This document shows positions 16,924 to 27,727 of a stretch of DNA of 64,000 nucleotides, in pieces. Within the stretch, counting starts at the first letter, position 1, and every line of letters begins with the position of its first letter. The translations under genes and the position numbers were made by a program. Below the pieces are notes generated by a model. That model did no database searches. It had not been told where the DNA came from and worked only from the letters and a program-made list of their open reading frames with translations. The stretch lies in the NCBI RefSeq assembly GCF_058153355.1, contig NZ_CM177019.1. One strand, written 5' to 3'.

Positions 16924-17847
16924 ATGAGTGTTTTATATCCGTTAATTCAGGCGCTGGTGTTATTTGCCGTTGCGCCGCTGCTCTCCGGTATTACCCGCGT
17001 GGCGCGCGCCCGCTTGCATAACCGTCGCGGGCCGGGCGTGTTGCAGGAGTATCGCGACATTATCAAACTGCTGGGTCGTCAGAGCGTTGGTCCCGATGCC
17101 TCCGGCTGGGTGTTCCGCCTGACACCGTACGTAATGGTTGGCGTCATGTTGACTATCGCTACCGCGCTGCCGGTAGTGACTGTCGGTTCTCCGCTGCCGC
17201 AACTGGGGGATTTGATCACTTTACTGTATCTCTTCGCCATTGCGCGTTTCTTCTTTGCCATTTCTGGTCTGGATACCGGTAGTCCGTTTACTGCTATTGG
17301 CGCGAGCCGTGAAGCGATGCTGGGCGTGCTGGTTGAACCGATGCTGCTGCTTGGTCTGTGGGTCGCCGCGCAGGTGGCCGGTTCCACCAACATCAGCAAC
17401 ATCACCGACACCGTTTATCACTGGCCGCTGAGCCAGAGCATTCCGCTGGTGCTGGCGCTCTGTGCCTGCGCATTCGCCACCTTTATCGAAATGGGCAAAC
17501 TGCCGTTCGACCTGGCGGAAGCCGAGCAGGAGCTGCAGGAAGGTCCGCTCTCTGAGTACAGCGGCAGCGGCTTTGGCGTCATGAAATGGGGTATCAGCCT
17601 GAAACAGCTGGTGGTGTTACAGATGTTCGTCGGGGTGTTTATTCCGTGGGGACAAATGGAAACCTTCACTGCCGGTGGGCTGCTGCTGGCGCTGGTGATT
17701 GCCATCGTCAAACTGGTGGTCGGCGTACTGGTTATCGCGCTGTTCGAAAACAGCATGGCCCGTCTGCGTCTTGATATTACACCACGCATTACCTGGGCTG
17801 GTTTTGGCTTTGCATTTTTAGCGTTCGTCTCCTTGCTGGCGGCGTGA
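16924..17847 (+). CDS. hycD: Formate hydrogenlyase membrane subunit 4
   Basis: 307-aa membrane protein. Confidence 0.95.
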   Translation: MSVLYPLIQALVLFAVAPLLSGITRVARARLHNRRGPGVLQEYRDIIKLLGRQSVGPDASGWVFRLTPYVMVGVMLTIATALPVVTVGSPLPQLGDLITLLYLFAIARFFFAISGLDTGSPFTAIGASREAMLGVLVEPMLLLGLWVAAQVAGSTNISNITDTVYHWPLSQSIPLVLALCACAFATFIEMGKLPFDLAEAEQELQEGPLSEYSGSGFGVMKWGISLKQLVVLQMFVGVFIPWGQMETFTAGGLLLALVIAIVKLVVGVLVIALFENSMARLRLDITPRITWAGFGFAFLAFVSLLAA

Positions 17848-17864
17848 TTAAAGAGAGTTTGAGC

Positions 17865-19574
17865 ATGTCTGAAGAAAAATTAGGTCAACATTATCTCGCC
17901 GCGCTGAATGAGGCATTTCCGGGCGTCGTGCTGGACCACGCCTGGCAGACCAAAGATCAGCTGACTGTCACCGTGAAGGTGAACTATCTGCCGGAAGTGG
18001 TGGAGTTCCTCTACTACAAGCAGGGGGGCTGGCTGTCGGTGCTGTTTGGTAACGACGAACGCAAACTGAATGGTCATTACGCCGTTTATTACGTGCTGTC
18101 GATGGAGAAGGGCACCAAGTGTTGGATTACGGTTCGCGTCGAAGTTGACGCCAACAAACCAGAATATCCGTCCGTGACGCCGCGCGTTCCGGCGGCGGTG
18201 TGGGGCGAGCGTGAAGTGCGCGATATGTACGGTTTGATTCCGGTAGGGCTTCCGGATGAACGCCGTCTGGTGCTGCCGGATGACTGGCCGGATGAACTCT
18301 ACCCTCTGCGTAAAGACAGCATGGATTATCGTCAACGTCCGGCACCAACTACTGATGCTGAAACCTACGAGTTCATCAACGAACTGGGCGATAAGAAAAA
18401 CAATGTCGTGCCGATTGGTCCGCTGCACGTCACTTCTGACGAACCGGGCCACTTCCGTCTGTTCGTTGATGGCGAAAACATTATCGACGCCGACTACTGC
18501 CTGTTCTATGTCCATCGCGGCATGGAAAAACTGGCGGAAACCCGCATGGGTTACAACGAAGTGACCTTCCTCTCTGACCGAGTTTGTGGGATCTGCGGCT
18601 TTGCCCACAGCACCGCTTACACCACATCGGTGGAAAACGCGATGGGTATTCAGGTGCCAGAACGTGCGCAGATGATCCGCGCCATTTTGCTGGAAGTGGA
18701 ACGCCTGCACTCGCATCTGCTCAACCTTGGCCTTGCCTGCCACTTTACTGGCTTTGACTCCGGTTTTATGCAGTTCTTCCGCGTGCGTGAAACCTCCATG
18801 AAAATGGCGGAGATCCTTACCGGTGCGCGTAAAACCTACGGCCTGAACCTGATCGGCGGGATTCGTCGCGATCTGCTGAAAGACGACATGATCCAGACCC
18901 GTCAACTGGCGCAACAAATGCGTCGTGAAGTACAGGAGCTGGTGGATGTGCTGCTGAGTACGCCAAACATGGAACAGCGCACTGTCGGCATTGGTCGTCT
19001 GGACCCGGAAATTGCCCGCGACTTCAGTAACGTCGGCCCGATGGTCCGCGCCAGTGGTCACGCCCGCGATACCCGCGCCGATCACCCGTTTGTTGGCTAT
19101 GGCTTACTGCCAATGGAAGTTCACAGTGAGCAGGGCTGCGATGTGATTTCCCGTCTGAAAGTGCGTATCAACGAAGTCTATACCGCGCTGAACATGATTG
19201 ACTACGGTCTGGATAACCTGCCGGGCGGCCCGCTGATGGTGGAAGGCTTTACCTACATTCCGCACCGTTTTGCGCTGGGCTTTGCCGAAGCGCCGCGTGG
19301 CGATGATATCCACTGGAGTATGACCGGCGACAACCAGAAGCTGTACCGCTGGCGCTGCCGTGCCGCGACCTACGCGAACTGGCCGACCCTGCGCTACATG
19401 CTGCGCGGCAACACCGTTTCTGATGCGCCGCTGATTATTGGTAGCCTGGACCCTTGCTACTCCTGTACCGACCGCATGACCGTGGTCGATGTGCGTAAGA
19501 AGAAGAGCAAAGTGGTGCCGTACAAAGAACTTGAGCGCTACAGCATTGAGCGTAAAAACTCGCCGCTGAAATAA
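17865..19574 (+). CDS. hycE: Hydrogenase 3 large (NiFe) subunit
   Basis: 569 aa from MSEEKLGQHYL...; RVCGICGFAHS N-terminal and DPCYSCTDR C-terminal NiFe ligand motifs. Confidence 0.96.
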   Translation: MSEEKLGQHYLAALNEAFPGVVLDHAWQTKDQLTVTVKVNYLPEVVEFLYYKQGGWLSVLFGNDERKLNGHYAVYYVLSMEKGTKCWITVRVEVDANKPEYPSVTPRVPAAVWGEREVRDMYGLIPVGLPDERRLVLPDDWPDELYPLRKDSMDYRQRPAPTTDAETYEFINELGDKKNNVVPIGPLHVTSDEPGHFRLFVDGENIIDADYCLFYVHRGMEKLAETRMGYNEVTFLSDRVCGICGFAHSTAYTTSVENAMGIQVPERAQMIRAILLEVERLHSHLLNLGLACHFTGFDSGFMQFFRVRETSMKMAEILTGARKTYGLNLIGGIRRDLLKDDMIQTRQLAQQMRREVQELVDVLLSTPNMEQRTVGIGRLDPEIARDFSNVGPMVRASGHARDTRADHPFVGYGLLPMEVHSEQGCDVISRLKVRINEVYTALNMIDYGLDNLPGGPLMVEGFTYIPHRFALGFAEAPRGDDIHWSMTGDNQKLYRWRCRAATYANWPTLRYMLRGNTVSDAPLIIGSLDPCYSCTDRMTVVDVRKKKSKVVPYKELERYSIERKNSPLK

Positions 19575-19583
19575 GGAATCGCC

Positions 19584-20126
19584 ATGTTTACCTTTATCAA
19601 AAAAGTCATCAAAACCGGCACGGCGACCTCGTCTTACCTGCTGGAGCCGATTGCGGTTGATAAAAACTTCCGTGGTAAGCCAGAGCAGAACCCGCAGCAG
19701 TGCATCGGCTGTGCAGCCTGCGTCAATGCCTGCCCGTCAAACGCCTTAACGGTTGAAACTGACCTCGCCACCGGTGAGCTGGCGTGGGAGTTCAATCTTG
19801 GACGCTGCATCTTCTGTGGACGCTGCGAAGAAGTCTGCCCGACGGCGGCGATCAAACTGTCGCAAGAGTACGAACTGGCGGTGTGGAAGAAAGAAGATTT
19901 CCTGCAACAGTCTCGCTTCGCGCTGTGCAACTGCCGCATCTGTAATCGTCCTTTCGCCGTCCAGAAAGAGATCGACTACGCCATTGCGCTGCTTAAGCAC
20001 AATGGTGACAGCCGTGCGGAAAACCACCGCGAAAGCTTTGAGACTTGCCCGGAATGTAAGCGCCAGAAATGCCTGGTGCCGTCCGACCGTATTGAACTGA
20101 CTCGCCATATGAAAGAGGCCATCTGA
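19584..20126 (+). CDS. hycF: Formate hydrogenlyase iron-sulfur subunit 6
   Basis: 180 aa, two CxxCxxCxxxCP motifs. Confidence 0.95.
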
Positions 20127-20893
20127 TGAGCAATTTATTAGGCCCCCGTGACGCCAACGGCATTCCGGTCCCGATGACGGTGGATGAATCCATCGCCAGT
20201 ATGAAGGCGTCGTTACTGAAAAAAATCAAACGTTCTGCCTACGTTTACCGCGTGGACTGCGGCGGCTGCAACGGCTGCGAAATTGAAATTTTCGCAACCT
20301 TATCGCCGCTGTTCGATGCAGAACGCTTCGGCATTAAAGTCGTTCCGTCTCCGCGTCATGCGGATATTTTACTGTTTACCGGCGCGGTCACCCGTGCAAT
20401 GCGATCCCCTGCGCTGCGTGCGTGGCAGTCCGCGCCGGACCCGAAAATCTGTATCTCCTACGGTGCCTGCGGTAACAGCGGCGGGATCTTCCACGATCTC
20501 TACTGCGTGTGGGGGGGGACGGATAAAATCGTCCCGGTGGATGTCTACATTCCGGGGTGCCCGCCAACGCCAGCCGCCACGCTGTACGGCTTTGCAATGG
20601 CGCTCGGCCTGCTGGAGCAGAAAATTCACGCCCGTGGGCCGGGTGAACTGGATGAACAACCGGCAGAGATCCTGCATGGCGATATGGTGCAGCCGCTGCG
20701 TGTAAAAGTAGATCGCGAAGCACGCCGCCTGGCGGGTTATCGTTACGGTCGCCAGATTGCCGATGATTTCCTGACGCAGTTAGGGCAGGGTGAAGAGCAG
20801 GTTGCACGCTGGCTGGAAGCGGAAAACGATCCGCGTCTGAACGAGATTGTCAGCCATCTGAATCATGTTGTTGAAGAGGCGCGTATTCGATGA
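20126..20893 (+). CDS. hycG: Hydrogenase 3 small subunit
   Basis: 255-aa ORF. Confidence 0.95.
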
Positions 20894-21300
20894 GTGAAAA
20901 GGTGGTGTTCAGTCAACTGAGCCGTAAATTTATTGATGAGAACGATGCTACGCCCGCCGAGGCGCAGCAGGTGGTCTATTACAGCCTGGCGATTGGTCAC
21001 CACCTTGGGGTTATCGATTGCCTGGAAGCCGCGCTCACCTGCCCGTGGGATGAATATCTGGCATGGATTGCCACTCTGGAGGCGGGCAGCGAAGCCCGCC
21101 GCAAAATGGAAGGCGTGCCAAAATATGGTGAGATCGTTATCGACATTAACCATGTGCCGATGCTGGCCAACGCATTCGATAAAGCCCGGGCAGCGCAAAC
21201 TTCGCAGCAGAAGGAATGGAGTACCATGCTGTTAAGTATGCTGCATGATATTTATCAGGAAAATGCCATCTATTTGATGGTGAGGAGACTGCGTGACTGA
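20890..21300 (+). CDS. hycH: Formate hydrogenlyase maturation protein HycH
   Basis: 136-aa ORF. Confidence 0.93.
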
Positions 21301-21763
21301 CGTTTTACTCTGTGTTGGCAATAGCATGATGGGCGATGATGGCGCAGGTCCGCTGCTGGCGGAAAAGTGCGCCGCCGCGCCGAAAGGTAACTGGGTGGTG
21401 ATTGACGGCGGAAGCGCACCGGAAAATGACATTGTCGCCATCCGCGAACTGCGCCCGACGCGACTGCTGATTGTCGACGCTACGGATATGGGGCTAAACC
21501 CCGGCGAGATCCGCATCATCGACCCGGATGACATCGCTGAGATGTTTATGATGACTACCCATAACATGCCGCTGAACTACCTTATCGACCAGTTAAAAGA
21601 AGACATTGGCGAAGTGATTTTCCTCGGCATCCAGCCGGATATCGTCGGTTTTTACTACCCGATGACCCAGCCGATTAAAGATGCGGTAGAAACCGTTTAT
21701 CAACGACTTGAAGGCTGGGAAGGGAATGGTGGATTTGCGCAGTTAGCGGTGGAAGAAGAGTAG
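21293..21763 (+). CDS. hycI: Hydrogenase 3 maturation endopeptidase
   Basis: 156-aa [25 protein letters not shown]... Confidence 0.95.
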   Translation: MTDVLLCVGNSMMGDDGAGPLLAEKCAAAPKGNWVVIDGGSAPENDIVAIRELRPTRLLIVDATDMGLNPGEIRIIDPDDIAEMFMMTTHNMPLNYLIDQLKEDIGEVIFLGIQPDIVGFYYPMTQPIKDAVETVYQRLEGWEGNGGFAQLAVEEE

Positions 21764-21787
21764 TTTTTCAGTAAGGAATTCAGGGAA

Positions 21788-22156
21788 TTGAAAATCAGAA
21801 CAGGGATGTGCGCTTTTTTATTTTGCTTAGTGCTTCCTACGCAGGCTACCAGCTTTACCGAATATCTGCCAATGAGTGACAGCGAATACGCGCAAAAGCG
21901 GGCGCTGAAACCTCTCCTGACTATGCCTTATTATACCGAGCAAACCTGGCATTTTAGAAAAGTGGGCGTTGCTGGCGTGACGCTTGAGAAGATGCCAAAT
22001 GAAGAGGATTACTGGCAATTAACTGCTAAAGACCGCGCCGGTAAATCCTGGAAGGTGCCTGTGGGTATGCTGGCAAATATGGCGGGCAAAGGGCAACTCT
22101 ATCGCGCCGATCTGGATCGTAACGGCATTCAGGATCTGGTTACCAAGTGCTGGTAA
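21788..22156 (+). CDS. Hypothetical secreted protein (N-terminal part of a possibly split gene), accessory
   Basis: 122-aa ORF with signal-peptide-like N-terminus MCAFLFCLVLPTQA and a DLDRNGIQDL motif; no K-12 counterpart at this locus. Confidence 0.45.
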   Translation: MKIRTGMCAFLFCLVLPTQATSFTEYLPMSDSEYAQKRALKPLLTMPYYTEQTWHFRKVGVAGVTLEKMPNEEDYWQLTAKDRAGKSWKVPVGMLANMAGKGQLYRADLDRNGIQDLVTKCW

Positions 22157-22187
22157 TGGTCTGGCTCCTTATGCACATTTAATCCTT

Positions 22188-22553
22188 ATGACGTTCACGC
22201 GCGATGGTCGTCCCTGTGTCTTTGAACCCTGGGGATTCTACACCGCAAGCAAAACTGGCGTAGATGATTTGCTGGATTTGCAAGGCAATGGCCACACACA
22301 ATTGCTGGATATGCAGTTTAATTCTGGTTACTGGATAACCAGTCTGTATCAGGTAAAAGACGCCAAATGGCAACGTGTTCACGGCTGGTTTGGCAAGTTA
22401 AGCTATCCCGCGCTCACGCGTTTTACTTATACCCCCAACCGTAAACTCGTCCTCAAACCCATTGCCGGGCGTGACCCGCAAACGGAAGATTTAGCGCTGA
22501 CGCAGCGTTGTTTGATAACAGGGGATGTGCTTGATGGGGTGAATCAGAACTGA
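22188..22553 (+). CDS. Hypothetical protein (possible C-terminal part of the same split gene), accessory
   Basis: 121-aa ORF in a different frame 31 bp after the previous stop; contains a DLLDLQGNGHTQLLD motif. Confidence 0.4.
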   Translation: MTFTRDGRPCVFEPWGFYTASKTGVDDLLDLQGNGHTQLLDMQFNSGYWITSLYQVKDAKWQRVHGWFGKLSYPALTRFTYTPNRKLVLKPIAGRDPQTEDLALTQRCLITGDVLDGVNQN

Positions 22554-22715
22554 CTTTTTGCAGAGTGGGTATGAGGATTTTGGGGGAGAATTATATCGCG
22601 CGCAAGTGTTTACATATTGTGAACTTGGATTTGGTGAGCTATAGTTTCTGAACACATAAGGATAGAACTCGCAGATGTGGCTGTTTACTTACTATAAGGA
22701 AGTTAAAACTTAAAA

Positions 22716-23027
22716 ATGCACATCATTTCGAAAGCGCCATTTGAAGAGTCTGCGCGCAAATATCCTAACGACGCTCTGGCTCTACACTCATTGTATCGGG
22801 TTATTAAGGAAACGGATTTTTCTACGCCAGAAGAAATGCGAACGGCGTTTCCCAACCTCGACAATTTTAAATATCGCAACAAATGGTACGTTCTGGATGT
22901 CGGCGGGAACAATCTTAGGGTTATTGCCTACATAAACTTTGTTAATAAGCGGTTCTTTGTGAAGCACATAACGAATCATGCCGAGTATGACAAACTGACA
23001 CGTTACTACAGAGAGAACAAAGAATGA
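22716..23027 (+). CDS. HigB-like toxin (RelE/ParE superfamily mRNA interferase)
   Basis: 103-aa ORF; similar in length and conserved segments (FPNLDNFKY, VGGNNLRV, H..YD) to E. coli HigB; toxin gene precedes antitoxin with a 4-nt ATGA overlap. Confidence 0.75.
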   Translation: MHIISKAPFEESARKYPNDALALHSLYRVIKETDFSTPEEMRTAFPNLDNFKYRNKWYVLDVGGNNLRVIAYINFVNKRFFVKHITNHAEYDKLTRYYRENKE

Positions 23028-23443
23028 CTGCTAATGCTGCACGCGCTGTTAAAGCAACAAGAGAACTGGTCAATGCAGTCCCCTTTCTGGGAGGCAGTGA
23101 CTCAGAAGATGATTATCGTGAAGCACTGGAACTGGTCGAATATTTGATTGAAGAAGATGACACCAATCCACTTATCGACTTTCTGGCGAGCCGCATTGCA
23201 GAGTATGAAAACAACCACGAAAAGTTTGCAGAGTTCGACAAAGCCGTTGCTGCAATGCCGGTTGGCGTGGCGTTACTTCGCACGTTGATTGATCAACATA
23301 ATCTGACCTATGCGGATTTGAAGAACGAAATCGGCTCTAAATCCCTGGTCAGTCAGATTTTGTCTGGACAAAGATCCCTGACGATATCCCACATTAAGGC
23401 ACTTTCAGCCCGATTTGGCGTTAAGCCGGAATGGTTTCTTTGA
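23024..23443 (+). CDS. HigA-like antitoxin (XRE-family HTH)
   Basis: 139-aa ORF; C-terminal segment IGSKSLVSQILSGQRSLTISHIKALSARFGV matches the HigA HTH region. Confidence 0.75.
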   Translation: MTANAARAVKATRELVNAVPFLGGSDSEDDYREALELVEYLIEEDDTNPLIDFLASRIAEYENNHEKFAEFDKAVAAMPVGVALLRTLIDQHNLTYADLKNEIGSKSLVSQILSGQRSLTISHIKALSARFGVKPEWFL

Positions 23444-23488
23444 TTTTGACTGATGCCAAACGCCAGATTGCCCGATGCGCAACGCTTA

Positions 23489-24718
<1,230 letters not shown>

Positions 24719-24748
24719 CATGCCTGCAATCTGGGAAACCGGGGTAGA

Positions 24749-24779
<31 letters not shown>

Positions 24780-24790
24780 TGTCGCACGAA

Positions 24791-24831
24791 CTATGTAGGC
24801 CGGATAAGGCGTTCACGCCGCATCCGGCACG
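24791..24831. repeat. REP element flanking the IS right end
   Basis: ctatgtaggccggataaggcgttcacgccgcatccggcacg, canonical REP palindrome. Confidence 0.8.
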
Positions 24832-24836
24832 TTTGC

Positions 24837-27727
<2,891 letters not shown>

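Follow-up and report, generated by a model that had tools for sequence, protein, structure and literature searches.

A gene for an uncharacterised, probably exported FG-GAP-like protein, recently frameshifted at an octanucleotide repeat downstream of hycI

Genes and reading frames downstream of hycI

The DNA analysed here (the window) is a 64,000-nucleotide stretch of contig NZ_CM177019.1 (NCBI RefSeq assembly GCF_058153355.1), and around the locus described below it is a segment of an Escherichia chromosome. According to the ORF list, hycE, hycF, hycG, hycH and hycI follow each other in this order on the + strand, succeeded by two short ORFs (ORF1 and ORF2). 3' of this pair lie genes for a higB-like toxin, a helix-turn-helix (HTH) antitoxin and an IS110-family transposase, and then ascB on the minus strand. 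The features to which we refer are the following:

21293..21763, + strand: hycI, the last gene of the formate hydrogenlyase operon, ending 24 nt before the broken gene
21773-21778: possible ribosome-binding site, AAGGAA
21788..22156, + strand: ORF1, the 5' fragment of the broken gene (TTG start, 122 aa); codons 1-118 are native and cover the signal peptide, the N-terminal beta region and the first Ca-loop motif, while the final four (TKCW) and the stop are read in the wrong frame
21788..21847, + strand: predicted Sec (SPase I) signal peptide, MKIRTGMCAFLFCLVLPTQA, cleavage site read by eye
22109..22135, + strand: first FG-GAP-type loop, D108-L-D-R-N-G-I-Q-D116 (DxDxNGxxD), better conserved than any other family motif
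22134..22141, + strand: lesion site, at which ATCTGGTT occurs once instead of twice in tandem as in intact alleles (DNA alignment)
22142..22553, + strand: 3' part of the broken gene in the shifted frame, of which ORF2 is the called portion
22188-22553, + strand: ORF2 (ATG start, 121 aa)
22275..22301, + strand: second, degenerate FG-GAP-type loop, D-L-Q-G-N-G-H-T-Q, in which D166 and G171 are conserved
22716-23027, + strand: higB-like toxin, matching PADLOC PD-Lambda-2_A (E 1.9e-15)
23024-23443, + strand: HTH antitoxin, matching the N-terminal part of PADLOC PD-Lambda-2_B (E 2.1e-14)
23689-24669: IS110-family transposase

No Rfam family was found in 21000-26500. A preliminary description of the locus had reported two ORFs in different frames, 31 bp apart, the first with a signal-peptide-like N-terminus and both with Asp/Asn/Gly-rich motifs. 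The ORF list bears out the frames and the spacing (21788 mod 3 = 2 vs 22188 mod 3 = 0; 31 nt). The N-terminus of ORF1, MKIRTGMCAFLFCLVLPTQA followed by TSF, indeed comprises a charged n-region, a hydrophobic core and a TQA cleavage motif, and both motifs could be located, DLDRNGIQDL at 22109-22138 and DLLDLQGNGHTQLL in ORF2. ORF2 itself has neither a signal peptide nor a Shine-Dalgarno motif or other ribosome-binding site upstream of 22188. In a three-frame translation, its frame is open well 5' of 22188, reading ...IWLPSAGNGLAPYAHLILMTF..., which is the expected outcome of a frameshift within one gene.

One gene split at a tandem repeat

Because both halves of the pair align end to end with single intact ORFs of other genomes, the pair is more than a chance juxtaposition of open frames. 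A single ORF of 250-269 codons lies directly 3' of hycI in about 1,460 of the 5,426 complete E. coli genomes, and protein searches retrieved single-ORF orthologues from E. albertii, Salmonella and Klebsiella oxytoca/spallanzanii as well. The Salmonella enterica orthologue (269 aa, 68% identity) is present on thousands of contigs and that of Klebsiella oxytoca/spallanzanii has 250 aa; in both genera, it is encoded by the next gene, or the next but one, after hycI. ORF1 and ORF2 are the halves of one 257-codon gene for an uncharacterised beta-sheet protein that is probably exported.

The preliminary description had left a choice between one ~250-aa gene split by a frameshift and two small genes, and had proposed to look for an intact single-ORF homologue of 21788-22553. 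Such homologues exist, with 774 bp and 257 codons, and support the former option. Two separate functional small genes would be in keeping with the presence of two open frames of ~120 codons each, close together on the same strand. However, the intact homologues in four genera are all one ORF, ORF2 is devoid of a signal peptide and a ribosome-binding site, the break sits within a predicted beta-strand of a single compact domain, and the two-ORF layout occurs only in alleles with a changed repeat number. We therefore reject the two-gene alternative, to which we assign next to no probability.

Intact alleles read GG ATCTGGTT ATCTGGTT ACC, with the codons D-L-V-I-W-L, and the gap in this tandem repeat is the sole length difference between the window and the intact alleles in a DNA alignment. 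The net change of -8 bp throws the codons 3' of the lesion into the +1 frame. Adding back eight bases restores an ORF of 774 bp and 257 codons, two substitutions (at 21839 and 22330) away from the closest intact allele, that of strain 2017-02-2CC. With only these two substitutions and no second lesion, the inactivation is recent.

A lone indel in an otherwise near-perfect allele, two substitutions from an intact one, could also stem from a sequencing or assembly artefact, the gene being intact in the real genome. However, the window and Logan contig SRR28786219_67 do not differ over 4,726 bp, one-copy state included, rendering an assembly artefact unlikely; should both derive from one isolate, which is possible, their independence would be limited to the assembly. 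In addition, the exact 122-aa stub (P0241) is encoded on three Logan contigs, the loss of a whole 8-bp unit is untypical of homopolymer or base-calling errors, and several finished genomes show the same kind of change. An artefact is thus highly improbable. Two further candidate explanations were rejected. Programmed frameshifting would need a +1 shift over an 8-bp loss and a slippery site, which was not found, and the lesion is missing from all functional alleles; an ancestral one-copy state is at odds with the two copies in Salmonella and in all intact alleles.

We suggest that one ATCTGGTT unit was lost by slipped-strand mispairing (x2 to x1) from a perfect 8-bp tandem duplication in the codons D-L-V-I-W-L. 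The intact product would be a ~25-kDa, Sec-exported protein folded as a single compact all-beta domain, whose two FG-GAP-type loops are predicted to be probably Ca2+-binding. Its gene, directly 3' of hycI, is probably read through from the hyc operon: the two genes lie on the same strand, spaced by 24 nt, and no terminator-like site was found between them, so that read-through is plausible. The frameshift would leave a secreted stub of 122 aa, truncated within a predicted beta-strand, and an untranslated 3' remainder. With these products, the gene has most likely lost its function, although some residual activity of the stub is conceivable. We are confident, short of certainty, that region 21788-22553 represents one gene inactivated by slipped-strand loss of one repeat unit. 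The locus is a pseudogene of recent origin, its intact product being an uncharacterised FG-GAP-like protein that is probably exported, and the event is of an ordinary kind, made mildly unusual by the repeated, multi-state change of the tract and by the unnamed but well-conserved protein family. For annotation, both ORFs should be merged as one frameshifted pseudogene rather than listed as two hypothetical proteins.

Conservation and predicted fold of the intact product

At the position of the start codon (21788), the window and some other alleles have TTG, others have ATG, and Salmonella/Klebsiella have GTG, a variation that supports the long N-terminus, MKIRTGMCAFLFCLVLPTQA followed by TSF. 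The TQA cleavage motif is replaced by AQA or ALA in relatives, a signal-like N-terminus is present in all family members, and orthologues carry the UniRef name "Periplasmic or exported protein". Pairwise dN/dS values among intact alleles and orthologues range from 0.14 to 0.34, showing at the sequence level that intact alleles are under purifying selection. The gene is conserved beside hycI in Salmonella and under purifying selection, and yet it is being lost in most E. coli. Should a function be found (e.g. envelope protection, fermentative conditions), the presence/absence/frameshift polymorphism would provide a useful natural knockout series.

An exhaustive HMMER search retrieved 230 representative clusters at E<=1e-3, most of them with 330-390 aa. 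Genome hits obtained with a 12-sequence alignment as the query placed distant members in Acidobacteria (Bryobacterales, Solibacter, Acidobacteriales), Thiolinea and Obscuribacterales. This family is unnamed and structurally confident, and has no Pfam entry. No conserved partner gene was seen in the neighbourhoods of the distant homologues examined. A Bryobacterales metagenome-assembled genome (MAG) carries two family paralogues of 333 and 336 aa in tandem (L019, 2004-4024). At two Acidobacteria loci (L020, L025), the downstream neighbour is a gene for a secreted product in which CarboxypepD_reg domains are combined with a C-x-C motif at the N-terminus; two loci are too few for a conclusion to be drawn from this shared neighbour. 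A 1,647-bp contig in a "Collinsella sp." MAG bin (JAIJJM010000690.1, L016) also carries an Escherichia-type copy (84% aa identity) and is most likely a mis-binned E. coli fragment.

An AlphaFold2 model, computed from a 68-sequence alignment, is all-beta and continuous over the break point (pLDDT 92.2, pTM 0.87); the break point falls within predicted strand 115-122. Residues D108, L109, D110, G113 and D116 of the first loop are nearly invariant among the 68 sequences, and the motif D108-x-D110-x-N112-G113-x-x-D116 conforms, by sequence, to the DxDxDGxxD pattern of Ca2+ loops. The second loop is canonical in distant homologues (DLDGDGRAE) and degenerate in enterics (DLQGNGHTQ). When the members were scanned singly, 54 of the 68 gave weak matches to FG-GAP_3 (best E 1.5e-7) and 38 to FG-GAP, while the PliI and CarG-like models matched two members each.

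The intact E. coli protein had no match to any Pfam family at E<=10 and lies below every Pfam threshold, nor did it match NCBIfam, PADLOC or PDB sequences. The family profile aligned the first-loop stretch to the Ca-binding loops of integrin alpha-V at a non-significant E of 0.9 and found nothing else in the PDB, and Foldseek returned nothing below E 0.07 from the PDB. No papers were found for a guessed Salmonella locus tag, STM2844. Of the calcium-binding repeats proposed in the preliminary description, the motifs therefore stand, whereas the E. coli protein itself is without a Pfam match.

The family resembles FG-GAP and FG-GAP_3 VCBS-like proteins (PF01839, PF13517) in its DxDxNGxxD loop followed by a hydrophobic beta-strand, in the weak Pfam matches of its members and in the profile alignment to the Ca loops of integrin alpha-V. 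It differs from FG-GAP proteins such as the beta-propellers of integrin alpha subunits in having two loops only, in that the E. coli protein scores below Pfam thresholds, and in a predicted structure that appears to be one ~235-residue beta domain rather than a seven-bladed propeller.

The PliI, X-Tfi and Tsi1 proteins, beta-propeller-like periplasmic inhibitors of peptidoglycan hydrolases, are described as a possible distant superfamily (PMC10933484). PliI-Ah, X-Tfi XAC2610, Tsi1 and CarG share with the present family the signal-peptide-like N-terminus, which is found in all its members. In contrast, similarity to them is marginal, sequence identities are 8-17%, the present family has an extra N-terminal beta region, no inhibitory-loop residue was recognised in the protein and an adjacent hydrolase or effector gene is missing. 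Indeed, no cognate effector or hydrolase gene lies beside the gene in the genomes examined, where its neighbours are hycI, higBA, hydN or unrelated genes. Against this background, our best guess, a tentative one that is more likely wrong than right, is that the product may be a periplasmic binding or inhibitor protein of the PliI/X-Tfi(XAC2610)/CarG structural type.

Variation at the locus and comparison with known systems

The gap between hycI and ascB (window 21764-24836) is a polymorphic islet in E. coli (loci L004, L005, L003), within which the broken gene, the higB-like toxin and the HTH antitoxin form the variable content. Its states are:

Empty: K-12-like genomes (strain S56)
With gene content: orf plus higBA; orf plus higA; 61-codon remnant plus higA

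In some strains, higB is deleted and the antitoxin alone is left. Strain MS1737 has a DUF4259 gene and hydN/hypF instead of ascB at this spot, and Klebsiella has symE-like and parDE genes. Among complete E. coli genomes, ~58% are without a trace of the gene, ~15% have a remnant and ~27% a full-length copy, and the protein database contains further independent truncations and frameshifts. Allele classes in E. coli differ at up to 15% of nucleotides. Across codons 121-165 (window about 22148-22275), dS between L001/L027 and L003 is saturated, as compared to 0.05-0.5 in the flanks, pointing to a recombination mosaic. MS1737 has an allele closely similar to the one in E. albertii. The hycE-hycI stretch of the window (17844-21763) shares at most 98.8% identity with any of the 5,426 complete E. 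coli genomes, indicating that the lineage of the source strain is absent from the finished genomes.

Natural alleles have one, two, three or four copies of ATCTGGTT, with the one-copy and the three-copy states each occurring on three allele backgrounds:

1 copy: the window; strain A30, with an allele one substitution away from the 2-copy allele of O111; strain E10, on a different background
2 copies: every intact allele, Salmonella included
3 copies: 13E0767; OkiPb strains; a third background in at least 24 contigs
4 copies: two Logan contigs of the third 3-copy background

In each altered-copy allele, the tract change is the sole frame-shifting indel, and PGAP labels the four checked alleles (13E0767, OkiPb01714, A30 and E10) as "frameshifted". 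Off-states account for nine of ~796 complete genomes (~1%) with this perfect-repeat allele class, seven with three copies and two with one. In the divergent class of alleles (MS1737, E. albertii), the repeat is imperfect, ATTTGGTTATCTGGCG.

These data invite the question of whether the tract is a reversible ON/OFF switch, i.e. a simple-sequence contingency locus, with the window representing the OFF phase of a phase-variable periplasmic protein. The 8-bp unit, not a multiple of three, lies inside an ORF, one to four copies exist in nature with changes on several allele backgrounds, and, with no frame-shifting indel in these alleles other than the tract change, a single slippage step would bring the frame back. 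On the other hand, tracts that switch at high frequency typically comprise at least five units, and the ON state here has only two, far below tracts with useful switching rates. Off-states are rare within this allele class, at the nine of ~796 genomes given above, one lineage moved from three to four copies and not back to two, the repeat simply codes for the conserved residues LVIWL and is found in Salmonella too, and most E. coli lose the gene by plain deletion. A reversible switch is therefore improbable. As its functional state has only two units, we do not regard the tract as a true contingency locus but read it as a slippage or mutational hotspot.

A wider proposal, to which we give little credence, would make the intact protein the founder of a hitherto undescribed family of exported beta-proteins that bind Ca2+ (~230 clusters, chiefly from Acidobacteria), whose long forms may have a C-terminal OB-fold like the B subunits of AB5 toxins. 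Enterobacteria would have acquired a short form at the 3' end of the hyc operon, where it would serve as a periplasmic inhibitor or glycan binder, its expression switched on and off by slippage in the octanucleotide tract. If true, the locus would be one of few in E. coli to show phase variation through a simple-sequence repeat. With slippage at a hotspot as the preferred reading, the locus cleanly illustrates how an octanucleotide repeat of two units can slip repeatedly in nature, and public genomes contain all four of its copy-number states.

Like the contingency loci of Haemophilus, Neisseria and Campylobacter, the present tract sets the frame of a gene for an exported protein through intragenic repeat copy number, and several copy-number states occur in nature; unlike in these systems, the tract is much shorter and off-states are rare. 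With slipped-strand frameshift pseudogenes, it shares a perfect direct tandem repeat that gains or loses whole units which are not a multiple of three, thereby shifting the frame, as well as one site that is hit repeatedly in independent lineages. It differs from them in that the functional tract has only two units, which are ordinary codons of conserved residues rather than a dedicated repeat.
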